A DNA stretch of 19,726 nt from Acidobacteriota bacterium. Lineage in GTDB: Bacteria; Acidobacteriota; UBA6911; JACQSX01. The notes below the pieces were generated by a model. That model did no database searches. It was not told the DNA's origin and worked only from the letters and a program-made list of their open reading frames with translations. The stretch spans positions 1 through 19,726 of the forward strand of contig DASXQR010000113.1 in NCBI GenBank assembly GCA_036507075.1, in the 5' to 3' direction. Made by a program: the position numbers and the translations under genes. Of the stretch, positions 211 through 18,895 are shown in pieces (within the stretch, counting starts at the first letter, position 1; the number at the start of each line of letters is the position of its first letter).

Positions 211-266
211 TCACTCCCCCACTCCCCCACTCTCCCACTCTCCCACTCCCCACTCACTCCCACCCC
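211..266. repeat. Degenerate 8-nt tandem array (CTCYCCCA)n, G-rich on the mRNA strand, overlapping the lipase stop codon
   Basis: ctccccca ctccccca ctctccca ctctccca ctcccca ctca ctccca cccc; seven C-tracts of 3 or more. Confidence 0.9.
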
Positions 267-1552
267 AGCGATTGCCGGATCGCTGTCCAGGATTCCTCGG
301 AAAACAAAGTCCCTATCTCTTCCAAATCCTGCCAGGTGAGATGATCGTCGTCCCCTTGTTTGGTTCGAAACACCAGGTTATCCGCGGCTGCGATGGCCGC
401 GACATCCACGGGCACAAGGGTTGTCTTGTAAAAGGAATTGATGGCAGCGATAAATTCATTAGCAACGATCGCCTGCCCGGTCCGGGTGGGATGTATCAAA
501 TCGAGACTGAAAATACCTCCCAGGAAAGACCCGGTGAGGCGAAGGTTTCCCACCGCAACTCCCTCCCTGCGAATACGACGCAAGAGCGCGTTGCTATCCA
601 CCACGGGAAACCCTCTTTGCTCTGCCAGCCGCGCGATCACGTTGTTGTATTGCTGCGTGCGCTCCCGAATCGCCCTGACCTCCTGGGCGGTCAAAACCAG
701 ATTGGGAGGCAGCGGGCCCTGGGCCTGCCCTTGCGCGATCTGCAGCAAAGTAGGAATGGCGGTGGCCGGAATCAGATCCTCCGGACCCACTCCGAGCACA
801 AACTGAACCAGCGGAGCGGGCACGCCTGCGGCAGCCGCAAGCTCGGGAATAGTGAAGAAGAACGCCGCCGACGGGACATCCGCAACGTTGGCCACCGCGA
901 TCCTGGCTCCGGTTGCCAGCACGCGATTGATCACTTCGGTAATATTGTCCCGGAAGCTTTCCAGGGAAGGCAGGTTTGCCGATCCGGCTGACGCGGGACC
1001 CAGAGCTTCGTTATTTCCCAGCCAGATGGTGGCAAAAGTGGGCTTTAAAAACTCGGCCTGTTCGACCTGACTTCCAGCCGGTGCGATCGGCGCCACCAGA
1101 CCCGGCAGCCCCAGGATCAGGTTGGTGAGAATGTTGTCAGGATTGAAGAATGCAGCCGAACCGACCGGTCCCACCGGTCTTTTACGAAGCGCGGCGTCGG
1201 CGGTGTGTCCCGGCACACCCAGATTGGTTGCCATCAGCAGCGGAAAGATACGACCGGTGGAGGTTCCCGGCCTGGGCTGAAGATTGGGCGGAAAACCGGC
1301 AGAAATCAATTGCAGTTCGTTCGGAATTCCGGGTCTGGCCACCAGCGGCACAAACACGAAGGTGCGCATCTGGGCGGAGAGCAGCACCGGATATGCCGCC
1401 CTTTGGCCATCCTCATTCAGTGAACCGCTGATATAGCCCGCCGTTAAGCTGTCACCCACCGCGACGTATGAGAGGAAGGAAGGCTGCTGCGCCTGAAGTG
1501 CGCCGATCAGCAAAAGGGCGAGAGCTGCGAGAATCAAAATCCTGCGAAACAT
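254..1552 (-). CDS. Secreted SGNH/GDSL-family lipase/esterase
   Basis: Signal peptide MFRRILILAALALLLIGALQA; block I YVAVGDSLTAG, block II NLGVPG, block III WLGNNE, block V SLDLIHP. Start placed at 1552 because the upstream ATGGAGGT supplies an SD (GGAGGT). Confidence 0.9.
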   Translation of the reverse strand: MFRRILILAALALLLIGALQAQQPSFLSYVAVGDSLTAGYISGSLNEDGQRAAYPVLLSAQMRTFVFVPLVARPGIPNELQLISAGFPPNLQPRPGTSTGRIFPLLMATNLGVPGHTADAALRKRPVGPVGSAAFFNPDNILTNLILGLPGLVAPIAPAGSQVEQAEFLKPTFATIWLGNNEALGPASAGSANLPSLESFRDNITEVINRVLATGARIAVANVADVPSAAFFFTIPELAAAAGVPAPLVQFVLGVGPEDLIPATAIPTLLQIAQGQAQGPLPPNLVLTAQEVRAIRERTQQYNNVIARLAEQRGFPVVDSNALLRRIRREGVAVGNLRLTGSFLGGIFSLDLIHPTRTGQAIVANEFIAAINSFYKTTLVPVDVAAIAAADNLVFRTKQGDDDHLTWQDLEEIGTLFSEESWTAIRQSLGWE

Positions 1553-1570
1553 AAAAACCTCCATTACCGG

Positions 1571-1611
1571 TTTAGAAATTCAACTTCGCTCCCATTTAGA
1601 AATTCAACTTC
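1571..1611. repeat. Exact 17-bp direct duplication of the receptor gene's 3' end, including the stop codon
   Basis: tttagaaattcaacttc at 1571-1587 and 1595-1611. Confidence 0.9.
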
Positions 1612-4600
1612 ACCCCGAACTGAATCTGCCTTGGGTCAAAGGCGGAAGTGAAACCGAGAGGCGCCGTCGGCGAGCCGCGAAATCCTTTCACATCCGACTT
1701 GTCTATCGCCAGGCCGACTACATTATTAACACCGGAAAAATTGGGGCGATTGAAAAGGTTGAAAGCCTCGGCGATCAACTCCAGGTTTCTCGCTCCGTCG
1801 GAGCTGAAGCTCAGCTTTCGCGCGATGCGCAGATCCATGGAAATAAAATTGGGGCCGCGGCCGGTATTTCTCCCCGCGATCTGACCGCCGGCGGTGGCAT
1901 CGCATGGCTTTTGGAGACACGGACGATCCGTCTCGTCATGGGTGTCTCCGTTGGCGTCAAAGCCGACCAGGAGATTAAACGGGCGGCCACTCGAATAAGT
2001 CACGATCGGGGCCACCACCCAGCCGGAAAGCAGGTTCTTGACCGCCTTATTATCGGAATCGCTGTGGCTGGCGATCACGCCGCTTACCACCAGGCGGTGC
2101 CGTTCATCAAAAGTGGACAAACTCTTTTCCGAGCGGAGGTCGCGCTGGTTATTTGGCTGCAGCGGGGTGATGAAGTCAGTGGCGTCGTCGATGGCCTTGC
2201 CGTAAGTGTAGGAGACCTGGAACGAGTGATTATGGCTGAACCGCTTCCGCCCGGAAAAAGTGAGGCCATGGTAGATCGACCTGCCGGTGGTCTCGATCTG
2301 GTTGATCTGGATGAAGCGCGGATCCAGCCCCGGCAGCGCAAAGCGGTTGGGGCCAGTCTGGCGGACATTGATATCCCGCGAGCGGATAATATGCAGTCCG
2401 CGATTCAGATTGTAATCGATCGACACTGCCAGATCGGTGAAGATTTCATGTTCGATTCCAAGACTGGCTTGATGACTGTAAGGTGTGTCGATCTTTGCAG
2501 CCTGCGGCAGAATGATCGACGGCGTGCGCCCCGGCGGCAATCCCAGCGCTGTGAGACGCTGCGCGGTGAGCGGGCCAAGCTGGCGGAAATTGGCGAAAAC
2601 CGTAGCCGAAGTGGTTGTGGTTCCGGGAAGCCCGGTGAGCGGCACGAATACCTGTGAAATCTGGCCGGATAAGACCTGGCTCACGAAAGCGATGGCGTTG
2701 TAGAAGCTTGAATAATAGAGCCCGTATCCGCCTCTCAGCACGGTTTTCCCTGACCCTCCCGGGTCCCAGGAGAAGCCTGCGCGCGGCGCAAAATTGTCGG
2801 TGTCGTTGACCGATCGGAATTCAAACTGGAACGGCGGCGCGGCATTGACGACATTGGAAGTTTTCGGTCTCAGCTCCACGTCGTAGCGCAAACCCAGATT
2901 GAGCGTGAAATTCGGCCGGACCTTCCATGAGTCCTGCAGGTAGGTGCCGAACTGGGTGTACCGGAAGCGCGTGTTCGGATCGCCAAAGCCCTGGAAAAAC
3001 GAAGTAGGAAGCCCGAAGTTGAACGATTGAACGGCGCTGATCGGATCAGAAAGCGCCGGAACAAGATCTGCGCGCCCCAGTTGCACCAATGCCGCTCCCA
3101 CTCCGCTCGCGACAGTCGGTCCTCCAAAATTGTTTAACAAAAGCGCCAGTGGAATGCTGCTCGCCGAGAAGAAAAAACGCCCTCCCAGAAAAACTTCGGC
3201 CGCCCCTCTTAAAAACGTGTAGTTGTAATCAATGCCGGTCTTCAGTGTGTGATTTCCTGAAATAAAAGTGAAGTTGTCAACCAGTTGATAGAGCTTCTCG
3301 TTGTAGCGGGTGGGATTGAAAAACTCACGTCCGAATTCCGCCACGCCTGCCAGCGTGATCTGCGGGCCAATGGGATCGTTTGTCTGGACTGTGTTCTGAC
3401 GGCGCGCCGCCTGAAACTTGAATTCATTGAGGCGATGCGGGTCGACCACGTGCGTGTCGGAAAGTACAAACGAGGTATCCTCGGTGTCAAAGGATACGCC
3501 GTTGGAGACGCCTTTGAGCGCCCCAAACTCCGCATTGCCGTTGAATCCCCTGGTGATGCTGAAGCGGGTGAAAAGCTGGTTATTCTGGGACACCAGAAAA
3601 TCATTTTTAAGCGAGAAGGTGTTCTGGTCCGCGCGGAAGGGAAATGTTCCGCTCTCGCGCTGAAACAGAGCGAGCGTGCCCGGGAAATTAAGAGGGGTGG
3701 TGTTCAACACTCCAAGTTGCGGATTTGCCAGCGCCTGAGCGAGCTCGCGCAGCGCCGGGACCGGAGCCTGGCCCAGAAAATCAAACAGCCGCCGCTGCGA
3801 TGTTGTCAGGCCGAAAATGCTGGGATCGTTCAGAAAGGTGACAAACAGCGATTCATCACGGTCCAGCCGCTCAAAACTTGCGAAGAAAAAAGATTTATCC
3901 TTCTGCAGCGGCCCGCCCACGGTGCCACCCCACTGCTTGCGCTGGAACTGCGGGTCTGGGCCGAACGCAAAATGGTTGCGCGCGTCGAAGCGCTTATCGC
4001 GAATGAAGTAAAAGACGTTGCCGTGGACCTTATTGCTTCCCGACTTGGTGACGATGTTGATCACGCCTCCCTGAGCGCGCCCAAACTCGGATGAGAACGA
4101 ATTGCGGTTGACCTGGAATTCGCTGATCCCTTCCTGGCTCAAAATCGAAAACGAGGAATTGGAAATCGAGTCGATGTTGTTGACGCCGTCAATGGTGATT
4201 GCGTTGGAACGCCCGTTCTGGCCGTTGAACGAAAGACCGGAGCTGGGCGCCTGCACCGCGGCGAAGCGCACCATCGAATTCCTGGTAGTGACCCCGGGCG
4301 TGAGCAGCGTGAAATCAAGATAGTTGCGCCCGTTGATCGGAAGGTTGTCGATCTGCATCTCGCCGATGGTATTGGACTGCTGCGTCTTGCTGATTTCCAG
4401 GATCGCCGCATCCTCCTGCACCACGATTTCCGTTTGCGTAGCCGACACGGTCATGACGAGATCGACGCGCGCAAATTGACCCACCGTAATGCTCACTCCT
4501 TCACGCACCTGCGTGCTGAAACCCGGCAGTTCGGCGCGCACTTCATACAATCCCGGAGGCAGCAACGGAATGCTGTACTGCCCTTCATCATTGGTAAGGG

Positions 4601-4790
4601 TCGACCGCGTAAGGGAGATCGCCTTATTGGTCGCCGTGACCGTGACTCCCGGAACAACCGCGCCGCTTTGATCCTTGACGGTCCCTTCCAGAGTGCCGGC
4701 AGTGGCCTGCGACTGGGCCGAAAGGAATTCAGAATTGAAGGTGAACAATACTGAGAGAAAGAGTAATCCGACACGCATCAAACAGCGCAT
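1596..4790 (-). CDS. TonB-dependent receptor-like outer-membrane protein with an N-terminal carboxypeptidase-regulatory-like domain (Oar-like)
   Basis: Signal peptide; GTVKDQSGAVVPGVTVT...LPPGLYEV domain; plug motifs LPINGRNYLDFTLLTPGV and EFGRAQGGVINIVTKSGSN; barrel motifs YLQDSWKV..TLNLGLRYD and FAPRAGFSWDP; C-terminal RQIQFGVKLNF ending in Phe; SD AAGGAGG. Confidence 0.93.
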   Translation of the reverse strand: MRCLMRVGLLFLSVLFTFNSEFLSAQSQATAGTLEGTVKDQSGAVVPGVTVTATNKAISLTRSTLTNDEGQYSIPLLPPGLYEVRAELPGFSTQVREGVSITVGQFARVDLVMTVSATQTEIVVQEDAAILEISKTQQSNTIGEMQIDNLPINGRNYLDFTLLTPGVTTRNSMVRFAAVQAPSSGLSFNGQNGRSNAITIDGVNNIDSISNSSFSILSQEGISEFQVNRNSFSSEFGRAQGGVINIVTKSGSNKVHGNVFYFIRDKRFDARNHFAFGPDPQFQRKQWGGTVGGPLQKDKSFFFASFERLDRDESLFVTFLNDPSIFGLTTSQRRLFDFLGQAPVPALRELAQALANPQLGVLNTTPLNFPGTLALFQRESGTFPFRADQNTFSLKNDFLVSQNNQLFTRFSITRGFNGNAEFGALKGVSNGVSFDTEDTSFVLSDTHVVDPHRLNEFKFQAARRQNTVQTNDPIGPQITLAGVAEFGREFFNPTRYNEKLYQLVDNFTFISGNHTLKTGIDYNYTFLRGAAEVFLGGRFFFSASSIPLALLLNNFGGPTVASGVGAALVQLGRADLVPALSDPISAVQSFNFGLPTSFFQGFGDPNTRFRYTQFGTYLQDSWKVRPNFTLNLGLRYDVELRPKTSNVVNAAPPFQFEFRSVNDTDNFAPRAGFSWDPGGSGKTVLRGGYGLYYSSFYNAIAFVSQVLSGQISQVFVPLTGLPGTTTTSATVFANFRQLGPLTAQRLTALGLPPGRTPSIILPQAAKIDTPYSHQASLGIEHEIFTDLAVSIDYNLNRGLHIIRSRDINVRQTGPNRFALPGLDPRFIQINQIETTGRSIYHGLTFSGRKRFSHNHSFQVSYTYGKAIDDATDFITPLQPNNQRDLRSEKSLSTFDERHRLVVSGVIASHSDSDNKAVKNLLSGWVVAPIVTYSSGRPFNLLVGFDANGDTHDETDRPCLQKPCDATAGGQIAGRNTGRGPNFISMDLRIARKLSFSSDGARNLELIAEAFNLFNRPNFSGVNNVVGLAIDKSDVKGFRGSPTAPLGFTSAFDPRQIQFGVKLNF

Positions 4791-4825
4791 TCAGCGGCCC
4801 TCCTTGAGAATCGAGAAATGTGGCT

Positions 4826-4855
4826 ACGATAATGTCAGTCGTCCAGGAAAGTCAA
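4826..4855 (-). promoter_or_regulatory. Possible sigma70 promoter for the receptor-lipase genes
   Basis: TTGACT (4850-4855), 18 bp spacer, TATCGT (4826-4831) on the minus strand. Confidence 0.4.
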
Positions 4856-4881
4856 ACGTAGTCGGGAAGGCACTGCCGAAC

Positions 4882-4965
4882 TTACTCTTCTTTACCGCCC
4901 CACTCCCCTTCATAACCCTTTTGCCCCCCTTCATACCCCTTCATAACCCCCCCAACCCTGTCCCC
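4882..4965. repeat. Degenerate 9-10 nt tandem array (CCCTTCATA family) overlapping the MBL gene end
   Basis: cccttcata at 4906, 4927 and 4937 plus decayed copies; same unit as the array at 14334-14439. Confidence 0.8.
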
Positions 4966-5896: not shown

Positions 5897-6147
5897 GCGG
5901 TTTCGGATTACGGTTTGCGGGTTACGGGTTGTCGGGTTGTCGGGTTACGGGTTAAGAAGCGCCACTTCAGGCTAAATGATGTCCCTTTGTGTCTTCGTGT
6001 CTTCGTGGCGATCAGTTTGTGAATAATCTGGGCTTGCGGTCGCGGTACTGAGAAATCCGCAAGTGAACCTCGTAACCCGACAACTCGGAACCCGAAAACC
6101 CGTAACCCGATAACCCGCAACGCGACAACCCGACAACCCGCAACCCG
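5897..6147. repeat. Inverted tandem-repeat element: (CGGGTTN1-2)n arm, ~110 bp core, (AACCCGN1-2)n arm
   Basis: Left arm 5897-5953 (cgggtta/cgggttgt units); right arm 6066-6147 (aacccga/aacccgt/aacccgc units). Confidence 0.9.
5949..6035. repeat. Dispersed repeat, copy 1 (GGGTTAAGAA...CTTCGTGTCTTCGTGG...GTTTGTGAATAATCYGGGCTT)
   Basis: 5985-6035 aligns with 14257-14308 with 5 mismatches and 1 indel; both copies are preceded by gggttaagaa. Confidence 0.85.
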
Positions 6148-6153
6148 GCTGCT

Positions 6154-7917
6154 TTACCGGGCGATTGTGCGCTGCGCGATTCGACGGTGAATCTCGATCA
6201 GGTTGACCGGATCGTAGCGGAAAAACTTTTTCAGGACCGAGAAGTAAGTGCGCAGCGTGTCTCCTTCGGCCAGTGCCGGAACAGCTTCGCGAGACTTGGA
6301 TTCCGCCGTTTGTACCGCTTCGTACAGATAGCCGCGAGCCAGGTCCGCGAAAGCGGCAGCGGTATCCGCATTGCTCTTATCCTGCGCCTGATGCGCGCGC
6401 ACCACGGCGCTTTCGGCCGCGTAGATTTCCATCACCAGATCGGCAAAAAGCATCAACACTTCCTGCTGCTCGCTCAATTGCTCGCCAAACCTCTGCGTGG
6501 CCAGACCGCCGACAAACAGGGCTGCCTTCTTCATTCCGGCGATCACCGCGTATTCGGGCGCGAAGGGACCGGTCGAGGGTGCGGGGCGATCCAGCGAAAG
6601 AATTTCCTCCTGCAGCTTCTTTGCCGCCTGCAGGAAGGGAATCTCGCCACGCAGGGCTCGGCGCATGATCATGGCTGGAATAAGAAGACGGTTGATTTCG
6701 TTTGTGCCTTCAAAAATTCGATTGATGCGCGAATCGCGGTAGTAGCGCTCCACTGGATATTCCTGGCTGTAGCCGTTTCCACCAAAGATCTGCACCGCTT
6801 CGTCGACGATGTAATCCAGGTACTCGCTGCAGCATACTTTGACGATCGAGCATTCGACCGCATACTCTTCAATCGCCTTCAGCCTGTCTTCCGGCGAGGT
6901 CGCGCCCTCGCGGGCCCGATCGATCCAGCCGACCGTGCGGTAGACGATACTTTCTCCCACCCATGCGTAAATGGACATGCGCGCCAGCTTCTGCTGGATG
7001 GCCCCGAAACTCGAGATCGGCTTGCCGAACTGATGGCGTTCATTGGCATACTGCGCCGCCTGGCGGATCACTTCTTTGGCGCCTCCGATGCAGCTTGCGC
7101 CCAGTTTGTAACGTCCGATGTTGAGAATGTTCAGGGCAATCCTGTGTCCCTTGCCTGTTTCTCCAAGCACGTTCTCAGCCGGCACGCGGGCATTCTGCAG
7201 GATCACCTGGCGGGTGGAAGAGCCTTTGATCCCCATTTTCTTTTCTTCCGCGCCCACGGACACTCCGGGAAAGGCTTTCTCCACGATGAACGCGGTGAAA
7301 TCGGTTCCGTTAATTTTGGCAAAGAGCACAAACAGGTCCGCAAAACCGGCGTTTGTAATCCACATTTTGCTGCCGTTGAGGGTGTATTCTTTCCCGTCGG
7401 CCGAAGGCACGGCGGTGGTCTTGGCCGCCAGAGCGTCCGATCCTGATTCAGCTTCAGTGAGCGCGTAAGCGGAAATCAGCTCTGCCGCCGCCAGTCGCGG
7501 CAGGTATTTCTGTTTCTGTTGCTCGCTTCCGAAAAAGACAATCGGCAATGTCCCGATTCCGCTGTGTGCACCGAAGGTCGCGGCAAAGGAGGCCGACCAT
7601 CCCATGCGTTCCGCGACCAGGCAGGAACTGGCCTCATCGAGGCCCAGGCCGCCGTACTTTTCGTCAAACGTAATGCCGAGCAGTCCGATTTCGGCCGCCT
7701 TGCGCAGCAACTGCCGGCTGAGCTCGTGCTTTCCATGCTCCAGCTCCTCCAACTGCGGAAGCACTTCCCGGCGGATGAAATCTTCCGTGGTACGGGCGAT
7801 CATTCTGTGTTCTTCCGTGAAAACTTCAGGCGAAAAAAGCGAGCCCACTTCAGGGCTTTCCAGAAGAAAACTTGCGCCCTTTACAATCCGGGTCTCTTTT
7901 TCAGCAACGCGGGACAT
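6154..7917 (-). CDS. fadE: Acyl-CoA dehydrogenase (Bacillus FadE / VLCAD-like, 587 aa)
   Basis: EKYGGLG, AYALTEAESGSDA, LNGSKMWITN, ERHQFGKPI, QIFGGNGY, RIFEGTNEINR. Start MSRVAEK at 7917 with GGAG SD; the longer ORF-track start reads through a repeat element. Confidence 0.93.
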   Translation of the reverse strand: MSRVAEKETRIVKGASFLLESPEVGSLFSPEVFTEEHRMIARTTEDFIRREVLPQLEELEHGKHELSRQLLRKAAEIGLLGITFDEKYGGLGLDEASSCLVAERMGWSASFAATFGAHSGIGTLPIVFFGSEQQKQKYLPRLAAAELISAYALTEAESGSDALAAKTTAVPSADGKEYTLNGSKMWITNAGFADLFVLFAKINGTDFTAFIVEKAFPGVSVGAEEKKMGIKGSSTRQVILQNARVPAENVLGETGKGHRIALNILNIGRYKLGASCIGGAKEVIRQAAQYANERHQFGKPISSFGAIQQKLARMSIYAWVGESIVYRTVGWIDRAREGATSPEDRLKAIEEYAVECSIVKVCCSEYLDYIVDEAVQIFGGNGYSQEYPVERYYRDSRINRIFEGTNEINRLLIPAMIMRRALRGEIPFLQAAKKLQEEILSLDRPAPSTGPFAPEYAVIAGMKKAALFVGGLATQRFGEQLSEQQEVLMLFADLVMEIYAAESAVVRAHQAQDKSNADTAAAFADLARGYLYEAVQTAESKSREAVPALAEGDTLRTYFSVLKKFFRYDPVNLIEIHRRIAQRTIAR

Positions 7918-7965
7918 ATTTTTCTCCAATCTTGTCTGCAGCGGGTCGGCGGCAGTGCTGTCACG

Positions 7966-8203
7966 GCAGAGACGCAGCGCCGTAGGCTGCCAAAAGCCGT
8001 CTACGTCTACGAGCACGTGCACGCCAATGTCCACGACTACGTCTACGATTTCGCTCGGTTTCGTCACAGACTGAAGAGAATTGCAGGCTGTTTGTAGAAG
8101 ACGTTGTCGTGATCGTGGACTTGAGACGTGGTCGTTGACGTGCACGTGCTTGTGGACGTAGACGGCTTTTTGGTTGCGGCCTATGGTCACGCTGTGTCTC
8201 TGC
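7966..8203. repeat. Large nested imperfect palindrome with hexamer (GTCYAC) inner arms
   Basis: 7966-8049 is the reverse complement of 8112-8203 (GCAGAGACRCAGCG / CCRTAGGCYGC / AAAAGCCGTCTACGTCYACRAGCACGTGCACG...), with a ~62 bp unique loop. Confidence 0.92.
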
Positions 8204-8226
8204 GTTGAAGCTTTTCGCCATCATGA

Positions 8227-9369
8227 TTAAGTCAAGTTTTCCAAAATTCCGGCGGCTCCCATTCCGCCGCCGACACACATGGTCACCATTCCGTATTTGG
8301 CCCGGCGGCGCTGCATCTCGCGCAGAATACCGGCAACCAGTTTGGCGCCCGTGCAGCCGAGCGGATGCCCCAGCGCAACGGCGCCTCCATTCACGTTGAC
8401 CCGCTCGAGAAGCAGGCCGGCGGTTCGGATCACCGCCAGAGCCTGGGCGGCAAAGGCTTCATTCAGTTCGATCAGTTCGATCTGATCCAATGTGAGACCG
8501 GCTTGGTCAAGAGCCTTCGGGATAGCCGCAACCGGGCCGATGCCCATCATTTCCGGTGTCACTCCCGCAGTAGCAAAGGCGACCAGCCGGGCTGCGGGCT
8601 GAAGGTTCAAATCGCGCATCGCTTTCTCGGAAACCACCAGTGCTGCCGCCGCGCCGTCGGACATCTGCGACGAATTGCCGGCAGTTACCGTGCCGCCGTT
8701 CTGAAAAGCGGGTTTCAGCGCGGCCAGGGCGGAAAGGGAAGTGTCGGGCCGCGGCCCTTCATCGAGTGTGAATTCGTGACCGTTCACTTTCACCGGCACC
8801 AACTCATCGTCAAACAGTCCGGCATCCTGCGCGTGTATCGCCTTTTTGTGGCTTTCCAGTGAATACTGATCCTGTTCCTCGCGCGAAATATTGAAGTGCC
8901 GCGCCAGATTCTCGGCGGTCAATCCCATATTCAGGTACACGTCAGGGTAAGTGGCCACCAGCGTGGGGTTTGGTGAAACCTTGTGGCCGCCCATCGGCAC
9001 CATGCTCATGCTCTCGGTCCCCCCTGCCAGGATGCAATTGGCTCCTCCGGCGGCGATGCGGTCGCAGGCAAGCGCAATGGCTTGCAGCCCACTGGAGCAG
9101 AAGCGGTTAATGGTCATGGCGGAAGTCGAGTGCGGCAGGCCCGCTCTGAGACTCGCGATCCGGGCCACATTCATACCTTGCTCGGCTTCAGGCATGGCGC
9201 AGCCCAGAATCACGTCGTCCACAGATTCTTGAGGCACTGAAGGATGGCGACGGAAAATCTCTTCGAAGACTGCAGCCGCCAGATCATCGGGCCTGGTTTT
9301 GCTCAACGTTCCCCGTGGTGCTTTTCCGACGGGCGTTCGAAGACAGTCAATAATGTAAGGTGTGTTCAT
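8227..9369 (-). CDS. fadA: Acetyl-CoA C-acyltransferase (3-ketoacyl-CoA thiolase)
   Basis: [10 protein letters not shown] (catalytic Cys), [29 protein letters not shown]. Confidence 0.95.
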
Positions 9370-9385
9370 AAAAAACTCCTTGCCA

Positions 9386-9620
9386 CGGGTTACGGGTTTT
9401 CGAGTTACGAGTTTTCGGGTTACCGGTTTTCGGGTTTTCGGGTTACGGGTTTTCGGGTTTTCAGGTTACGGGTTTCAAGCTATGAGTCAGATGTGAATTA
9501 CCGATCCTCGGATTCAGAAATTCGAACTTGCCGTCCCGAACTCGTAGCTTCCAACCTGCAACCCGCCAGTAACTCATAAACCCGAAACCCATAACCCGTA
9601 ACCCGAAAACCCGAAACTCG
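9386..9620. repeat. Inverted tandem-repeat element: (CGGGTTA/CGGGTTTT)n arm, core, (AACCCG)n arm
   Basis: Left arm 9386-9476; right arm ~9535-9620, more decayed towards the core. Confidence 0.9.
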
Positions 9621-9632
9621 TCACTGGCCCGC

Positions 9633-13576: not shown

Positions 13577-13585
13577 GGAGGCTTC

Positions 13586-14179
13586 TCACGTGGAGATTCC
13601 GCGGAAGAATGTCTGAAATATCGCATCCGCGGTGGAGGCTAACGGATATTTCTTTTTGCTTAACATCCAATTGGTTGTCATTTCATCCAGCGCGCCGAAA
13701 AGCACCTTGCTGGCAATGCTGCTGTCCACGTCTCTGCGGATGGTGCCGTTTTTTTGTCCCGCTTCGATCACGCTGCGAATCACTCTCAGATACTCGGCCA
13801 CCCGGGTGGCGGAGAACTGCTCCATGAACTTGATCGAATGCCGCAGTTCCACTTGAAAGACCACTGCCAGATCGGCGTCGTTTTCCATCAGTTCCAGATG
13901 CATTTTAATAATCTTGCGAAGCCTGGCAACCGGATCTTTCAGTTGCGACAGCTCCCGATTGATGCAGTCCATCACCTCATCCATCACATGGTTGAAAATG
14001 GAAACCAGGATGTCGTCCTTGTTTTTGAAATAGAGGTAGACGGTGCCGTCGGCCACGCCCGCCTGGCGGGCGACATCGGCCACCGTAGAGTTGAAGAATC
14101 CGCGCCGGGCAAAGACTTTAATTGATGCCTTCAGGATGGTGTCGTATTTTTCGTAATGGACCGCGCGCTGCGCTTTCAT
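13586..14179 (-). CDS. fadR: TetR-family fatty-acid degradation repressor (B. subtilis FadR/YsiA type)
   Basis: HTH AGVADGTVYLYFKNKDDIL plus C-terminal VFQVELRHS and FGALDEMTTNWML..KYPL closely resemble B. subtilis FadR as I recall it. Start at 14179 preferred; 14200 is possible. Confidence 0.88.
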   Translation of the reverse strand: MKAQRAVHYEKYDTILKASIKVFARRGFFNSTVADVARQAGVADGTVYLYFKNKDDILVSIFNHVMDEVMDCINRELSQLKDPVARLRKIIKMHLELMENDADLAVVFQVELRHSIKFMEQFSATRVAEYLRVIRSVIEAGQKNGTIRRDVDSSIASKVLFGALDEMTTNWMLSKKKYPLASTADAIFQTFFRGIST

Positions 14180-14181
14180 AG

Positions 14182-14199
14182 TGAATGAATATTCATTCA
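14182..14199. promoter_or_regulatory. FadR operator (perfect 18-bp palindrome)
   Basis: TGAATGAATATTCATTCA matches the Bacillus FadR box TGAATGANTANTCATTCA and lies just upstream of fadR. Confidence 0.9.
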
Positions 14200-14228
14200 T
14201 TTTAGCCGGGCCCGGAGGAAAAGAGCAA
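14199..14228 (-). promoter_or_regulatory. Probable sigma70 promoter of the fad operon
   Basis: TTGCTC (14223-14228), 18 bp spacer, TAAAAT (14199-14204); the predicted start site falls inside the operator. Confidence 0.65.
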
Positions 14229-14246
14229 GCAAAAGTCTGGGGCATG

Positions 14247-14308
14247 GGGTTAAGAACTTCGTGCCTTCATGTCTTCGTGGCAATCATGTTTGTGAATAAT
14301 CCGGGCTT
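14247..14308. repeat. Dispersed repeat, copy 2
   Basis: gggttaagaa-cttcgtgccttcatgtcttcgtggcaatcatgtttgtgaataatccgggctt, homologous to 5949-6035. Confidence 0.85.
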
Positions 14309-14333
14309 ATGCGCGCGGTTCGGCTGGCAATCG

Positions 14334-14439
14334 CCCTTCATCCCCTTCATCCCCCCTTCATCCCCTTCATCCCCTTCATCTCCCCTTCATAACCCTTCAT
14401 AACCCTTCACAACCCTTCACAACCCTTCACAACCCTTCA
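14334..14439. repeat. Tandem array of 11 CCCTTCA-containing 9-11 nt units starting at the TPR stop codon
   Basis: Units ccccttcat, aacccttcat and aacccttcac; the TGA stop is part of the terminal unit. Confidence 0.95.
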
Positions 14440-14922
14440 ATTCACCCGCCTTTTTAGCTGCCGGATCGCTTCCAGAGCCACCACGTAATCGGGCTGCAGC
14501 CGGGCGGCTTCCTGAAAATGGAAAAGGGCGCGATTAAACAACTCTTTGGCCAGGAAAATGCGCCCCAGATTGAAATGCGGGAAATGGTATGACTCGTAAC
14601 GGGGAGCCCGAATCGCCTTGCGCAGCCATGGGATCGCCTCGTCCAGTTTGCCCTTCTGGATCAGATATGCCCCGATGTCGTTGTAGGGGTTTCCAAAATC
14701 AGGATCGACGTTAATCGCCTTGCGGCATTCGGCAATGGCTTCGTCCAGCCGGCCCTGAAAGCTGTAGGTCCATCCGAGAAACGTGTAGGCTTCTGCGGTG
14801 GGGAAAGCTTCGATGGATTCTTTGTAGTATTGCTCGGCCAGGTCCAACTCCCCTTCCACCTGGTGCTGGTAAGCCTGGCTGAATAATTCCCACGCAAGAG
14901 TTAAGTCTTCCTGGTCTGCCAT
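14437..14922 (-). CDS. Tetratricopeptide-repeat protein
   Basis: Successive TPR motifs (AEAYTFLGWTY...EAI, NPYNDIGAYL...EAI, PHFNLGRIF...AL). Confidence 0.9.
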   Translation of the reverse strand: MADQEDLTLAWELFSQAYQHQVEGELDLAEQYYKESIEAFPTAEAYTFLGWTYSFQGRLDEAIAECRKAINVDPDFGNPYNDIGAYLIQKGKLDEAIPWLRKAIRAPRYESYHFPHFNLGRIFLAKELFNRALFHFQEAARLQPDYVVALEAIRQLKRRVN

Positions 14923-15021
14923 CGTGCGGAATTTTACAACCTTCTGCCGGCGCGCAATAGGGCGCCGATCACTTGCGCGGTAAAGTTATAGAAATAAGGT
15001 ACATCGACTCTCTTGGCACAC

Positions 15022-15175
15022 TTCCGAATACGGGTTGCGGGATGCGGGATGCGGAATGCGGAATGGCATATGTCCAACTTGATTCTTCCAAACCAAGAAC
15101 CAGTCTTTTTTTCCAAGCCGAGATCGGAATCGCTCCCTATTCCGCATTCCGCATTCCGAAATCCGCATTCTGGAA
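15022..15175. repeat. Inverted tandem-repeat element: (GCGGRAT)n arm, ~73 bp core, (ATTCCGC)n arm
   Basis: Left 15022-15065 ttccgaatacgggttgcgggatgcgggatgcggaatgcggaatg; right 15139-15175 attccgcattccgcattccgaaatccgcattctggaa. Confidence 0.9.
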
Positions 15176-15234
15176 AGGTTTTGGCCTGTGGCCGACTGCG
15201 ATCTCAAAGTGTCTCTGCAGTCAACTCGACTTTC

Positions 15235-16290
15235 CTACAATTCTTCCAGAATCGCGTCGGTCATCTGGCGCGTTGAAAGCGCCTTGCCGGCGGGATGCAA
15301 ATCCGCCGTGCGGCAACCCTTCTCGAGAGCCGCGCCCACAGCCCGGCGGATTTGCGCGGCCCCATCAATAATCTTCAGGGTGTGCTCGAACAGCATGGCG
15401 ATACACAGGATGGAAGCAATCGGATTGGCGATTCCTTTTCCCGCAATGTCGGGAGCGGTGCCGTGAATCGGTTCGTAAAGCGCCTTTCCGCTTCCCAGGC
15501 TCGCGGAAGGAAGCATTCCAAGCGATCCCGCGATTACGGCTGCTTCGTCGGTGAGGATGTCTCCGAACATGTTGTTTGTGAGTACCACATCGAAGCTCGA
15601 AGGCGTGGTTATTAACTGCATCGCAAAGCTGTCAACCAGACGGTGTTCCAGTTGAACGTCCGTGTAGTGGCTGTGAACGTCGGTAACGACATCGCGCCAC
15701 AGCCTGGATGTTTCCAGAATATTGGATTTATCGACACTGGTAACTTTCTTCCTGCGATTGCGGGCGGTTTCGAACGCCAGGCGCGCGATGCGCTCGATTT
15801 CAGGACGCGTGTAGAGTTCCGTGTCGACAGCGCGATCCTTTTCCCGGTGTTTCGGCTGGGCGAAGTAAATACCGCCTGTCAGTTCCCGGAAGAACAGGAT
15901 GTCTGCGCCTCTGATAATCGAGGGTTTCAAGCTCGAGCTGTCTTCCATGCCCCGCCAGACATAAACCGGCCTGAGGTTGGCAAAAAGCCCCAGCTCCTTG
16001 CGCAGCGTCAGGAGCGCTCGCTCGGGCCGCCGCGCCAGAGATTCGTTGTCCCATTCCGGTCCTCCCACGCAGCCCAACAGCACAGCGTCGCAATTCCTTG
16101 CCTTCTCGAGTACGGAATCCTGAAGCGCCACGCCGTGCGCCTTGACGCTGGCGCCCCCCGCCAACTCTTCTGCCAGATCCAAACTGACAGCATGTTTGCG
16201 GGCACACCGCTCCAGCACTGCGACGGCGCTGGGAATCACTTCAGTGCCGACACCGTCGCCGGGAAGCACCAGTAGTTTCAGTCGTTTCAC
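15235..16290 (-). CDS. leuB: 3-isopropylmalate dehydrogenase
   Basis: LPGDGVGTE, VGGPEWD...RPERALLTLRK..LFANLRP, RELTGGIYF, VDKSNIL, NMFGDILTDEAA, YEPIHGTAPDIAGKGIANP; GTG start with GGAG SD. Confidence 0.92.
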   Translation of the reverse strand: MKRLKLLVLPGDGVGTEVIPSAVAVLERCARKHAVSLDLAEELAGGASVKAHGVALQDSVLEKARNCDAVLLGCVGGPEWDNESLARRPERALLTLRKELGLFANLRPVYVWRGMEDSSSLKPSIIRGADILFFRELTGGIYFAQPKHREKDRAVDTELYTRPEIERIARLAFETARNRRKKVTSVDKSNILETSRLWRDVVTDVHSHYTDVQLEHRLVDSFAMQLITTPSSFDVVLTNNMFGDILTDEAAVIAGSLGMLPSASLGSGKALYEPIHGTAPDIAGKGIANPIASILCIAMLFEHTLKIIDGAAQIRRAVGAALEKGCRTADLHPAGKALSTRQMTDAILEEL

Positions 16291-16309
16291 GGCCTTGCTC
16301 CGTAAGGAT

Positions 16310-16374
16310 ATTGCCGATTTAAAAATTGGAAACTTTCAATTTTCAAATCTTTAAACCTTCAAATTTTCAAATTG
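16310..16374. repeat. AT-rich inverted 8-nt repeat element (TTTGAAAA / TTTTCAAA) overlapping the cupin stop
   Basis: gatttaaaaattggaa (16316-16331) pairs 14/16 with tttcaattttcaaatc (16334-16349); further ctttaaa/cttcaaa/tttcaaa units extend into the cupin gene. Confidence 0.75.
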
Positions 16375-16686
16375 ATTGGGCGCCATCACGACAGCGACGA
16401 TCGCCCGATTGCCGGAATGGTTGGCAATCCCGTGCGCCATCCCGGCGCTTGCAACCGCCGCTTGATTTTTTTGCAACGGCTGCTGCTCGCTTTCCAGCGT
16501 GACTTGGACCGTTCCTTCAAGGACCAGATAGATCTTGTCATTGGCGGCATGCCGATGGACTTGTTGCTCCTGGCCCGGCTCGAGACAGTAAATATCAAAA
16601 AACATCCTTGGGCTGGAGAAGAGATTCTTCTTTTTGAATTTTACGCTCTGAAATTCCGCACTTTCAATCAGATCGAATATCTGCAT
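16351..16686 (-). CDS. Cupin-domain protein
   Basis: LEPGQEQQVHRH..NDKIYLVLEG and AGMAHGIAN cupin motifs. Confidence 0.9.
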   Translation of the reverse strand: MQIFDLIESAEFQSVKFKKKNLFSSPRMFFDIYCLEPGQEQQVHRHAANDKIYLVLEGTVQVTLESEQQPLQKNQAAVASAGMAHGIANHSGNRAIVAVVMAPNQFENLKV

Positions 16687-16748
16687 GGCTTCACCGTACG
16701 CGCCGTCTCCGGCTTAGATCTAATGGTTGCCGCATCGAGCCGAGTTGC

Positions 16749-17044
16749 TTAGAAGTTGTGAAAGAATCGACGCCACCGGGCTTGTCCCGTGAGAAAAAAT
16801 TGTGACCGGAGCTGCGGCTTTGCCGCCCATCGTGCGGAAAGGCTCCACCTTTCCGGCAGAGCCATTTTTCACATTCTTCCTTTCTCCGCAAACCGAGGCG
16901 CAGCCTCGGTTTGCGGAGAAAGGATGGAGGGCATCGCCCGGAAAGGCAGAGCCTTTCCGCACGATGAGGCGGCAAAGCCGCAACTCCACTTCGATTTCTT
17001 CTCACCTTCCAAGTCTGGTGGCATCGATTTTTTCACATATTCTT
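16749..17044. repeat. ~295-bp nested REP/REPIN- or MITE-like palindrome
   Basis: Arms 16749-16855 and 16938-17044 are roughly 80% complementary by eye; perfect 22-bp central stem 16878-16899 / 16903-16924 with loop GCA. Confidence 0.92.
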
Positions 17045-17083
17045 ACGCGCGTCCGACACGAGTGGAAGCCCCTTCTTTCTACA

Positions 17084-17144
17084 CTCCCCCGCTCACCCAC
17101 TGCCCCGCTCTCGCGCTCCCCCGCTCTCGCGCTCCCCCACGCTC
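17084..17144. repeat. Degenerate 8-nt tandem array (CTCYCSCG-like) encoding the HAD C-terminus
   Basis: ctcccccg ctcaccca ctgccccg ctctcgcg ctcccccg ctctcgcg ctccccca; related to the array at 211-266. Confidence 0.88.
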
Positions 17145-17827
17145 AACTTTTCAAACAGAGCTGACAGCCGCCTCACCCTTGCGCCGTCAAAATTGGAATG
17201 CAGGTTATCCCGATCCAGCAGCACCGCCTGCATTCCGGCTTTACGGGCGCCGTAGTAATCGTGTGAAGGCGAGTCACCGACATAGCATGCGTTCGCCGGC
17301 TTTGCATTTGCCTGTACGCAGGCGGCCAGGAATATCCCGGGATCGGGTTTTGCGACCCCCACGCGCGCGGAGATGGTGACCTGCGCGATCCAGGGCTGCA
17401 AGCCAAGGTCCTTCAGCAATCCGGAAAGCCGGGAGTCAAAATTAGAAATCAATCCAATACGGCAGCCATTGCGTGTCAGAAGTTTCAGTGTGGCGGCGGC
17501 ATCAGGATAAAGCTGCCAGCAGCGCGCGGTGGCAAATGAGCGAAACAGATAATCAAAGTACGGGTCCAGGTCGAGGGTGATACCTGCCCGCCGGCAAACT
17601 TCGCCCACCAGGTTCTTCCACCACTGACGTTCGAATTCGCGTACGCGGGTCCGTTTGGGCGTCGTCATGGGCGGCGAAGCATCGAAAACTTCATGGAATA
17701 TATGCTCCATCAGGCCGGGGTCCGCGTGAGCGCCAAAAAGTTGCGCGGCTCGCGCATACTGTCCTCCCACGCTGCCGCGCACGCCAAACAAAGTCCCAAC
17801 CGCGTCAAAGAAAATCCACGTCATCAT
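17093..17827 (-). CDS. HAD-superfamily hydrolase, subfamily IA (REG-2/HDHD3-like)
   Basis: FFDAVGTL, ISNFDSRL, KPDPGIF, YVGDSPSHDYYGA. Confidence 0.92.
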   Translation of the reverse strand: MMTWIFFDAVGTLFGVRGSVGGQYARAAQLFGAHADPGLMEHIFHEVFDASPPMTTPKRTRVREFERQWWKNLVGEVCRRAGITLDLDPYFDYLFRSFATARCWQLYPDAAATLKLLTRNGCRIGLISNFDSRLSGLLKDLGLQPWIAQVTISARVGVAKPDPGIFLAACVQANAKPANACYVGDSPSHDYYGARKAGMQAVLLDRDNLHSNFDGARVRRLSALFEKLSVGERESGGARERGSG

Positions 17828-18152
17828 CGGTTTCGGGTTTTCGGGTTTCCTGGTTTCGGGTTACGCGTTTTCGGGTTACGGGTTTTCGATTTACGGGTTT
17901 TGTCTGAAGATTCGGATTCAAGATTGAAAGTTCGAAAGATCAAACCGAATTGAGTTTCGATCCTTAATTGGAAGTTATTCTACCAAGCCGCAACTCGAAA
18001 CCCGCAACCGCTACCCGCAACCCGTAATCCGGAACCAGCAAACTCGGAACCCGGAACGCGCAAACCCGGAACCCGCAAACTCGGAACGCGCAAACCCGCA
18101 AACGCGCAAACCCGCGAACACGCAAACCCGTGAACGCGCAAACCCGGAACGC
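17828..18152. repeat. Inverted tandem-repeat element between divergent genes
   Basis: Left arm 17828-17901 (cgggttt/cgggtta); right arm ~17988-18152 (aacccgc/aacccgga/aacgcgca); ~85 bp core. Confidence 0.92.
17977..17985 (-). promoter_or_regulatory. Possible extended -10 promoter for the HAD gene, inside the element core
   Basis: TGG-TAGAAT on the minus strand. Confidence 0.4.
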
Positions 18153-18165
18153 GCCGGTGCGACCG

Positions 18166-18171
18166 TATAAT
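18166..18171 (+). promoter_or_regulatory. -10 box for a probable leaderless transcript
   Basis: Perfect TATAAT 6 nt before ATG at 18178; no SD. Confidence 0.65.
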
Positions 18172-18177
18172 ATCCTT

Positions 18178-18810
18178 ATGCCTGAGAAATATTTGCTGGA
18201 AACGCGCGCCGTTCCTCCGTTTTACAAGAACGGCTATCTGCTCGCCTGCGCGCAAACAGGAGAAACGGTGCTGATCGATCCCGGAGATGAAGTGCAGGAG
18301 CTGGCCGCAGTAGCTGACCGGCGAAACTGGACCGTGAAATACATTTTGCTCACGCACGCACACATGGATCATATTACCGGGGTCGATTTTGCCAAGAGGC
18401 GCTATTCCGTCCCTATTTTCCTGCACAAGGACGATGAATTTTTGTACACCGGTCTGGCGCAGCAGGGTGAGTGGTTTGGAGTTCGGCTGAGCGCTCCCCC
18501 TCCGGTGGATAAATATTTCTCCGACGGCGGCACAGTCGAATGGGGAAAGCTTAAAGCCGAGGTGATTCACACGCCGGGTCATTCGCCGGGAGGCGTATGT
18601 CTGAAGCTGGATAACCTGGTGATCGCCGGAGACACGCTCTTTGCCGGCAGCATCGGCCGCACGGACCTGCCCGGAGGCGATGCGACCACCCTGATTCGGA
18701 GCATCAAGACGCGGCTCTTGCCGCTCCCGGATCACGTCATCGTCTATTCCGGCCACGGTCCGGAAACGACAATCGGCCAGGAACGAAGAACAAATCCCTA
18801 CTTAAATTGA
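18178..18810 (+). CDS. MBL-fold metallo-hydrolase (glyoxalase II / YcbL-like)
   Basis: LIDPG, THAHMDH, HTPGHSPGG, GDTLFAGSIGRTDLPGG, SGHGPETTIGQERRTNP. ATG at 18178 chosen; the ORF-track GTG start lies in the repeat arm. Confidence 0.93.
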   Translation: MPEKYLLETRAVPPFYKNGYLLACAQTGETVLIDPGDEVQELAAVADRRNWTVKYILLTHAHMDHITGVDFAKRRYSVPIFLHKDDEFLYTGLAQQGEWFGVRLSAPPPVDKYFSDGGTVEWGKLKAEVIHTPGHSPGGVCLKLDNLVIAGDTLFAGSIGRTDLPGGDATTLIRSIKTRLLPLPDHVIVYSGHGPETTIGQERRTNPYLN

Positions 18811-18895
18811 GCACGAATTTTCACGAATGACACGAATTTCACGAATCTTTAAATTAGTTTCGTGAAATTCGTGGAATTCGTGAAAATTCGTGCTC
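18809..18895. repeat. 37-bp-stem hairpin built from CACGAAT tandem units between convergent genes (possible bidirectional terminator)
   Basis: 18809-18845 and 18859-18895 are complementary at 35/37 positions, with a 13-nt loop. Confidence 0.93.

Follow-up and report, generated by a model that had tools for sequence, protein, structure and literature searches.

The closest described relatives of the elements treated here are REPINs, non-autonomous hairpins that lie between genes in hundreds of copies, each class being tied to a roughly single-copy, repeat-flanked RAYT gene encoding an HUH Y1 transposase (PMC5581495). In the 23S rRNA intervening sequence (IVS) of Coxiella, an S23p/PF05635 ORF sits inside a long stem that has spread horizontally, and the S23p protein is seemingly not made in vivo (PMC4990558). 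Intergenic 7-mer arrays near stop codons are described from Xanthomonas and Nostoc (PMC4692102) and, as TAACTGA repeats, from Beggiatoaceae (PMC4679880). Xanthomonas arrays often form inverted pairs, and repeat-free orthologous sites are noted in Bacteroidetes; G-quadruplex or translational roles were proposed, the available text of both papers names no cargo gene, and Rehm et al. regarded heptamer repeats as generally not associated with mobile elements. The DGR protein Avd forms a pentameric, positively charged barrel (PMC6182149). Croucher et al. (PMC4774983) predicted that elements gain by switching on at competence.

The window, by which we mean the whole 19,726-nt stretch of DNA analysed, holds 15 genes and thus 14 junctions, 11 of which contain short-period degenerate arrays (Table 1). 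A preliminary description had placed repeats at 12. Arrays at most junctions stand, whereas the twelfth, between SGNH- and TonB-like genes, contains only a direct duplicate, 17 bp long, of the gene end, and 1571..1611 was accordingly rejected as a tandem arm. Both tight junctions are array-free, as first described: fadN and fadD overlap, and fadD and fadR are 9 bp apart. When junctions alone were scanned, a TRF score of 40 was passed by 10 of 13, versus 1 of 2600 shuffled junctions; the array at 4905-4950 extends beyond the stretch covered by that test and scores 41-50 in the whole-window array scan. Inverted pairs are clear at six junctions (beginning at 5899, 7998, 9386, 15026, 17829 and 18810; folding z -3.8 to -16.3, both strands counted), and a small pair lies at 16308-16373. 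Over 97 bp, the core at 5955-6051 matches half of a C59 element of the CACGAAGA family at 96% identity, so that elements nest. The proposed plan of arm, unique core and reverse-complement arm thus holds for the pairing but not for the uniqueness of every core. The long hairpin at 16751..17043 is a separate family, unlike the tandem-arm elements. The window contains no rRNA match and, as the preliminary description stated, no mobilising gene.

Table 1. Repeat features of the window, with arms, gene context and relatives
Feature	Tandem array	Type	Arms or parts	Gene context	Relatives
212..263	212-263	Lone arm, GGGGAGTG octamer family		Overlaps SGNH-like stop codon	Cognate cassette a frameshifted FHB on C231 (word cosine 0.60 to FHB_C231 flanks)
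1571..1611		17-bp direct duplication, read directly from sequence	1571-1587, 1595-1611	3' end of TonB-like gene	
4895..4955	4905-4950	Lone arm, CCCTTCAT 9-10-mer family		Overlaps MBL stop	No cognate gene found in G000
5899..6147	5899-6147	CGGGTT-family inverted element	Arms 5899-5954, 6066-6147; half CACGAAGA element enclosed at 5955-6051		Word cosine 0.82 to FHB_C73; core 0.71 to GxxExxY_C59
7960..8200	7998-8170	CACGTC/GTCYAC-family inverted element		Between fadE and fadA	Intact FHB cassette on C37 has the same arm word and outer end; 310 BLAST matches
9386..9617	9386-9617	CGGGTT-family inverted element	Arms 9386-9475, 9578-9617	Between fadA and fadN	Cosine 0.91 to FHB_C73; core without homologue (BLAST, genome)
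14257..14439	14334-14439	Nested remnant	Half CACGAAGA element 14257-14319, short non-tandem piece, CCCTTCAT arm 14334-14439	CCCTTCAT arm overlaps TPR stop	
15026..15170	15026-15170	GCGGAAT-family inverted element	Arms 15026-15065, 15139-15170		
16308..16373	16330-16373	Small AT-rich TTTGAAAA-type array, partly inverted		Overlaps cupin stop	No cognate in word comparison with G000 cassettes
16751..17043		Long non-tandem REP/REPIN-like hairpin, z about -20			96 BLAST matches genome-wide
17084..17138	17084-17138	Lone arm, GGGGAGCG octamer family		Translated in frame into HAD gene end	Cosine 0.50 to FHB_C231
17829..18154	17829-18154	CGGGTT-family inverted element	Arms 17829-17901, 17988-18154	Between divergent HAD and MBL genes	Junction repeat-free in G002
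18810..18895	18810-18895	CACGAAT-family near-perfect hairpin		Between convergent stops	C140 GxxExxY gene as cognate, cosine 0.87; 252 BLAST matches

Contigs from run X1, which may derive from the source sample, and from run X2 reproduce the array-bearing stretches 5958-8287, 5958-9429 and 16939-18115 with 0-2 differences. The arrays are therefore no assembly artefact, an outcome that had been named as refuting. No strain polymorphism was discernible at any element in these contigs; contig joints at 15064-15146 were considered as excision, but their inner letters differ and they were read as other family members. In relatives, orthologous junctions are empty, occupied by other families, or hold an FHB gene, so that the empty sites sought at the outset exist.

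Genome-wide, 1598 strong arrays were counted versus 4 in a shuffle. Arrays occupy 1332 of 3530 junctions of at least 30 bp, as defined by rough, in-house gene calls, and are denser in the window than in the genome. Of 1252 pairs of neighbouring arrays, 607 are inverted and just 34 direct, where random pairing gives 3.7% inverted, and the above-chance pairing expected by the preliminary description is thus borne out. The arm words are few and fixed, polarity is fixed (563 of 576 pairs), paired arms lie outside genes in 1135 of 1150 cases, and own arms beat same-family arms as complements in 237 of 343. The claim that a lone arm is the first arm fits only the window; 199 left-type and 181 right-type lone arms on the mRNA strand rule out such polarity, including an anti-Rho version of it. 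An Rfam search returned nothing except sub-threshold miRNA hairpin matches.

Elsewhere in the same genome, full members consist of a left arm of tandem words, a promoter, an RBS, one small gene and a complementary right arm. The gene encodes either a four-helix bundle (FHB; S23p/Avd fold, PF05635) or a GxxExxY nuclease (PF13366), the two kinds of cargo that the preliminary description had named from other genomes. No others were found between complementary arms, the larger cores being nested hairpins or ordinary genes lying between two elements. Nor did we find a DDE transposase with matching TIRs between such arms, or an HUH Y1 gene inside tandem arms, the Y1/RAYT genes lying separately in the genome. 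Two reverse transcriptase (RT) matches occur, neither on an FHB contig; as a partner, the single full-length one was rejected, resembling a group II intron RT that is unlinked and not under the motif described below. Four intact FHBs have a pI of 8.6-10.8, and we know of no catalytic site in the FHB. GxxExxY cargo is of PD-(D/E)XK type. The cognate genes for the window words CGGGTT and GGGGAGT are frameshifted.

The proposal that the window arrays are cargo-less copies gained support. One deletion derivative, retaining a promoter remnant, the RBS and the last FHB codons, occurs at 12 dispersed loci. A gene-less derivative thus multiplied as a unit. There is also turnover at orthologous sites. 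Against the proposal, gene-less cores keep the promoter in only 3 of 477 cases and protein-level cargo remnants in only 3 of 576; 262 of 406 cores are singletons, and capture from genes was rejected as their origin, only 1 of 175 best matches falling inside a called gene. We see evenly balanced odds that the arrays belong, as members without a gene and frequently nested or half lost, to roughly twelve families of small palindromic, putatively mobile elements. No target-site duplication above control was detected in four families, where the longest flanking direct repeat equals control (e.g. 3.93 versus 3.86), with the qualification that the pattern ends of three of the four may fall inside arms.

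Arm word and protein go together. Inverted arms flank 71 of 80 GTDB relatives of the FHB on C199 (direct arms, 13), and the 20 relatives placed on a tree, from three phyla, have a common GGCAG-type word (19 by label, 1 by eye). A common word was found in 0 of 190 same-genome FHB pairs and in 9 of 12 cross-genome pairs of at least 70% identity. Words are 7-mers for 38 of 45 FHBs and 8-10-mers for 12 of 12 GxxExxY genes, and cassette words of the same genome account for 813 of the 1598 strong arrays. As judged by sequence comparison, protein clade predicts arm word and each word has one FHB per genome. This coupling points to sequence-specific recognition and argues against the earlier idea of recognition by structure alone, although plain co-inheritance could also cause it. 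For GCGGAAT, the commonest word in the genome, no cognate was found in G000; the cognate FHB clade is present in G001 and at metagenome locus L396; of 121 metagenome matches, 2 were FHBs from that clade, the right arm being visible for one.

A bipartite promoter-like motif (70 matches of at least 16 bits versus 0 in a shuffle) lies upstream of comEA, comEC, comFC, comM, dprA, ssb, recA and the minor-pilin operon, as well as radC, recG, uvrD, recQ and ERCC4. It also precedes 10 of 12 Y1 (IS200/RAYT) transposase matches. From its shape, position and targets, we infer that it is a promoter. A model trained on 12 competence and recombination genes alone gave at least 19 bits for 11 of 13 own cassette genes and at least 8 bits for 15 of 20 host-family FHBs, against a background of 37 of 485 genes at 8 bits and 11 of 485 at 12. 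The motif regulon recurs in G001-G003. Copies of the motif also occur close to a candidate ECF sigma factor (C17:71533-72094) in G000, G001, G002, G007 and G015. The motif precedes 6 of 24 FHBs outside the host family, and 1 of 29 GxxExxY genes phylum-wide and 5 of 80 GTDB FHB relatives, which led us to reject a universal promoter link; cassettes elsewhere seem to be mostly promoterless and inside operons. What is new is a competence-type motif ahead of cassette genes and Y1 transposases in the host family, not phylum-wide. In Blastocatellia, a second motif, in comM and FHB leaders, marks 12 of 42 FHB leaders versus 0 of 38 others; a stricter pattern gives 11 matches genome-wide versus 15 in the control, and the other genome-wide matches are not competence genes. 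RadC was found in 1 of the 5 genomes of that comparison.

The presence of a competence-gene motif on cassette genes suggests that the elements act or spread during DNA uptake. Under our preferred reading, to which we assign a probability of about 0.5, they are non-autonomous, putatively mobile hairpins of single-stranded DNA (ssDNA), following REPIN/RAYT-like logic and timed to competence. Each protein would recognise its own word in trans on ssDNA, the FHB, which is basic and probably pentameric, serving as an adaptor that binds the word and GxxExxY nicking DNA as a PD-(D/E)XK enzyme. Insertion or copying may be left to the recombination machinery of the host (RecA/DprA/ComM) or to an HUH enzyme expressed alongside. 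Competent cells contain plentiful ssDNA and tend to lose inserts through transformation, and expression at that time would allow elements to spread or persist. The logic would be that of REPINs and RAYTs, carried out by other proteins.

If the arrays instead acted as RNA-level intervening sequences, transcript stems would be cut by RNase III, being tolerated or processing operon mRNAs, while the proteins bound repeat RNA and spread needed no enzyme of its own, gene conversion or recombination sufficing. We think this rather unlikely, even though cargo family and fold are those of IVS S23p, RNase III cuts out the Coxiella IVS (PMC4990558), pairs begin a median of 8 nt past the stop codon, and many cassettes elsewhere lack their own promoter. 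Selection for hairpins on the mRNA strand was rejected (more stable in 153 of 294, p=0.45), and the same strand comparison disclosed no G-U bias favouring that strand. Divergent gaps are filled as well (80 pairs). RNA-level action also leaves unexplained both the promoter common to DNA-uptake genes and Y1 transposases and a PD-(D/E)XK cargo with an intact D..E-x-K motif.

Uptake sequences of Neisseria and Pasteurellaceae are the model for a further alternative, in which small genes retained by the host in the competence regulon mark or protect incoming word-bearing DNA, or destroy wordless DNA, and biased uptake or recombination drives words into gaps. Many unrelated FHB and GxxExxY clades bear the host's own promoter variant, each word has one gene per genome, arrays adjoin stop codons, and RAYTs have been argued to be domesticated, perhaps acting on incoming DNA (Bertels et al., PMC5581495). 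Such domesticated transformation tags are nonetheless improbable in our judgement: cassette genes are patchily distributed and move between phyla, 5 of the genome's 13 own copies are damaged or incomplete, gene-remnant derivatives have multiplied whole, and inspection of the cassette proteins disclosed no export signal. Slippage with fold-back repair at terminator-like hairpins, the small genes being mere passengers, would suit the unequal, degenerate arm copy numbers and many unique cores but is very hard to reconcile with few fixed words of fixed polarity, one protein clade with the same word across several phyla, near-identical copies at distant loci, and arms at which no terminator-like match was detected, intrinsic terminator counts equalling those of the shuffle.

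Beyond this window, we would extend the ssDNA-hairpin reading only tentatively, at somewhat short of even odds, to a widespread word-addressed class for which FHB and GxxExxY proteins are ssDNA trans factors, repeatedly wired here, with most Y1 transposases, into the competence regulon. One genome ties PF05635, GxxExxY, heptamer-type repeats and RAYTs to one regulatory input. If the reading is correct, natural transformation is the stage on which hairpin repeats spread, the large families PF05635 and PF13366 gain a function, bacterial heptamer repeats an origin, and the persistence of RAYTs, a question raised in PMC5581495, a testable reason. Because timing (competence), substrate (ssDNA hairpins with a named word) and protein-word pairing are predicted, the reading lends itself directly to assays of binding, cleavage and transformation. 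For a soil lineage in which we found neither described, the analysis also supplies a candidate sigma factor and a promoter motif for competence; our literature search, with most subscription journals and supplements outside its coverage, found no paper on the cassettes or promoter link.

Among known systems, the heptamer repeats match these arrays in unit length, position near stops and inverted pairing, and differ in the roles proposed and the lack of a named cargo gene. The Coxiella IVS likewise spreads horizontally and has the same ORF family within a stem, the latter a likeness that concerns full-length members elsewhere in the genome rather than the window copies. Here, however, the elements occupy hundreds of gaps between protein genes rather than an rRNA gene, and their ORFs have their own promoter and RBS. 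The FHB fold matches Avd (PDB 4dwl, TM 0.72), but there is no DGR and no linked RT. An internal-deletion derivative of a gene-bearing element in 12 dispersed copies recalls MITEs, although DDE-dependent MITEs differ from what is seen here, with no target-site duplication and no DDE-encoding partner with matching TIRs. REPINs are nearest in the number of intergenic hairpins (607 inverted pairs here), the missing target duplication, and one cognate gene per repeat class; they differ in that the arms here are tandem 6-10-mer words enclosing an FHB or PD-(D/E)XK gene rather than an HUH Y1 transposase. The true Y1/RAYT genes here are separate, yet have the same promoter motif. Hairpin cassettes and competence-promoter Y1 transposases do not figure in the available text of Croucher et al. 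(PMC4774983). As in competence regulons, an upstream motif is common to genes for DNA uptake and processing.

The arrays are real and belong to an undescribed class of element. Arrays of short-period words (arms) were found at 11 of 14 junctions of the window, which is all of C113 (C numbers denote host contigs) in a 6.1-Mb genome of 233 contigs (95.7% complete). The preliminary description counted 12; the twelfth is a direct 17-bp duplication of the TonB-like gene end (1571-1611), possibly a scar. By TRF on junctions alone, 10 of 13 passed versus 1 of 2600 shuffled, and the folding energies of six clear inverted pairs lie far below those of shuffled sequences. Contigs of two sequencing runs, one of which (X1) may be the source sample, reproduce the arrays and discount an assembly artifact. 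Gene content is ordinary (fadR-fadD-fadN-fadA-fadE, two MBL hydrolases, leuB, cupin, HAD hydrolase, threonine dehydratase and others); the genes without NCBIfam match are presumably cupin, SGNH and TonB-like, as read from sequence. Arms extend, in frame, over the final codons of the SGNH-like (254-263), MBL (4931-4955), cupin (16351-16373) and HAD (17093-17138) genes, and the conserved end of the CACGAAT family often supplies or abuts a stop codon. The fadR-like gene is closely preceded by a short palindrome (14180-14203), likely its TetR-type operator.

Across the host genome, 1598 strong arrays were detected, mostly 7-9-mers, versus 4 after shuffling. Inverted pairing, as proposed, is well above chance: it joins 607 of 1252 neighboring arrays (within 1.5 kb) versus 3.7% of random pairs, and only 34 of the 1252 are in direct orientation. 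Pair polarity is fixed (563/576). By our own rough gene calls, 1135 of 1150 paired arms lie outside genes and pairs start a median of 8 nt past a stop codon. The idea that lone arms are first arms fell, as they lack strand preference (199 versus 181), and cores proved unique only in part; 262 of 406 are singletons, whereas the clustered rest largely hold other hairpin families in the loop. In 237 of 343 cases, an arm matches its partner in the element better than the family's other arms. Target duplication, sought in four element families, was not found. IVS-like elements working at the RNA level are an unlikely alternative; greater hairpin stability on the mRNA strand was looked for and was absent (153/294).

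The suspected cargo-bearing versions exist. The host has seven four-helix-bundle (FHB; PF05635/TIGR02436) loci (8 TIGR02436 matches) and six loci of GxxExxY (PF13366) nuclease-type genes, nearly all between complementary arms and each with a different word. Words of these resident cassettes are matched by 813 of the 1598 strong arrays, including window families (Table). No resident gene was found for the GCGGAAT word, the FHB clade of which occurs in relative G001 and metagenome locus L396; comparison with host cassettes assigned no gene to CCCTTCAT or TTTGAAAA. A derivative of the C37 cassette, retaining promoter remnant, RBS and last codons, occupies 12 loci; gene-less forms therefore multiply. 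Most gene-less cores are traceless (promoter kept in 3/477, protein remnant in 3/576), and the two dissectable window remnants are pieces of nested elements. The FHB structure model (pLDDT 93.5) matches Avd and also 2gsc and 2rld, both entries of five chains. The intact FHB proteins are basic, and D..E-x-K is kept in four intact GxxExxY proteins.

Orthologous junctions turn over, as anticipated; comparison was with relatives outside the genus, which places the element ends only approximately. The HAD-MBL gap lacks repeats in G002. In the fadN-fadA gap, G001 and G007 carry word families other than the host's and G006 carries a non-tandem hairpin; in G012 and G025 this gap is short. Downstream of fadA, a full FHB cassette is present in G007. 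The cupin-HAD gap of G001 holds another family. Beside dprA in Pyrinomonadaceae, the gap next to what we take to be a tRNA-Sec-like gene contains an FHB cassette in two genomes (L461, L464, L465; G172, G174) and gene-less elements with other words in three (L460, L462, L463).

Word and protein are coupled. Among 80 GTDB relatives of the C199 FHB, arms are inverted in 71 and direct in 13, and all 20 placed in a tree (every fourth), from three phyla, share one word family. Among 50 FHBs of the host and relatives, word sharing is 9/12 at ≥70% identity, 5/13 at 60-69% and 1-2% below 50%, with 0/190 for same-genome pairs. Because tree columns are few and kin non-independent, these data are evidence of coupling and not of recognition. 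Most arms of FHB cassettes are 7-mers, and those of GxxExxY cassettes are 8-10-mers.

Between left arm and gene, cassettes have a common two-box motif (TTCGCA, ~17 nt, GTTATGT). A matrix from nine cassette leaders found 57 host sites at ≥20 bits and 0 in a shuffle; a refined matrix found 70 at ≥16 bits. Sites at ≥25 bits number 61. Competence or recombination genes follow 13 of them, FHB/GxxExxY genes or their remnants 12, and Y1 transposases 11; the other 25 stand before different genes or before none. The 13 targets in the first set are comEA, comEC, comFC, comM, dprA, a minor-pilin operon and radC, together with recA, ssb, recG, recQ, uvrD and ERCC4. Uptake genes mark competence rather than SOS, and we read the regulon accordingly. 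Several start codons lie 0-1 nt past the 44-nt motif, as would be expected of a -10 box and leaderless mRNA. The window's best site scores 11.3 bits, with no strong copy.

A reverse matrix, trained only on 12 competence/recombination leaders at sites located by the first matrix, scored 11 of 13 own cassettes at ≥19 bits, the two misses being 5'-broken copies; at ≥8 it detected 15/20 family FHBs, 6/24 other FHBs and 37/485 background genes. Pattern sites exceed controls in G001 (49 versus 5) and G003 (31 versus 5) and are near control level in G002, G007 and G015; downstream genes in G001-G003 include dprA, recA, ssb, radC, comEA-like, Y1 and FHB. By eye, cassette leaders resemble their own host's dprA variant in G010, G013, G015, G021 and G023. 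Of 116 genomes of the class, 55 have the pattern, usually in 1-5 copies, a range that overlaps with controls. Its presence at 1/29 GxxExxY genes across the phylum and at 5/80 GTDB FHBs speaks against generality. Blastocatellia have a CACCC..CCGCT motif in comM leaders (L466-L470) and 12/42 FHB leaders (e.g., L193, L203, L228); its stricter form showed no genome-wide enrichment there. Domesticated transformation tags are a somewhat less probable explanation still than RNA-level elements.

An ECF sigma factor is a candidate competence sigma. The motif occurs within the 3' end of its gene and divergently upstream of it, and also near the orthologues in G001, G002, G007 and G015. Genes under strong motif copies are candidate new competence or element genes, and the seven of eight scanned (all except C28:575-931) gave no convincing Pfam/NCBIfam family. 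A group II intron-type RT (C146:65461-66669; L313) lies beside a motif-preceded opposite-strand ORF without matched family. REP-like hairpins were seen by eye upstream of several host Y1 genes.

Features of the window and host genome
Feature	Location	Remark
CGGGTT window word	C73	cognate FHB, word match
CACGTC window word	C37	cognate FHB, word match
GGGGAGT window word	C231	cognate FHB, word match
CACGAAT window word	C140	cognate GxxExxY, word match
CACGAAGA window word	C59	cognate GxxExxY, word match
Long non-tandem hairpin family, REP/REPIN-like	window 16751-17043	96 BLAST matches
Y1 (IS200/RAYT-type)	C122, C85, C201, C107, C32, C223, C225, C163, C167	motif upstream of 10/12 matches
ECF sigma factor, then zinc-finger/TPR anti-sigma-like gene	C17:71533-72094 (L080:2534-3094)	minus strand
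Genes under strong motif copies	C48:57222-58103, C97:18644-19267, C28:1997-2368, C28:575-931, C87:5355-5624, C83:143915-144415, C30:17300-18253, C192:97720-99135	

We favor, at a probability of about 50%, non-autonomous hairpin elements that an FHB or GxxExxY protein would serve in trans through its own word. The protein would act at a single-stranded DNA stage, where binding, cleavage and a route of insertion are predicted, and the motif would be a working promoter that times expression to competence in the host lineage. Slippage is a very improbable source of the arrays. What makes the system important is chiefly the map of words to proteins, together with the link to the competence regulon, both open to direct testing.

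The literature searched, supplements excepted, contained no description of the cassettes or promoter link, and such a gene appears as a table entry in PMC5524665 (seen in part). Comparison drew on portions of papers on REPIN-RAYT (PMC5581495, PMC3116915), heptamer repeats (PMC4692102, PMC4679880), the rRNA IVS (PMC4990558), the DGR protein Avd (PMC6182149) and mobile element activation at competence (PMC4774983). MITEs have a target duplication and a DDE partner, and the elements have neither. With the rRNA IVS they share the protein but not the location. They work like REPIN-RAYT, but are set apart by the enzyme that defines that system.
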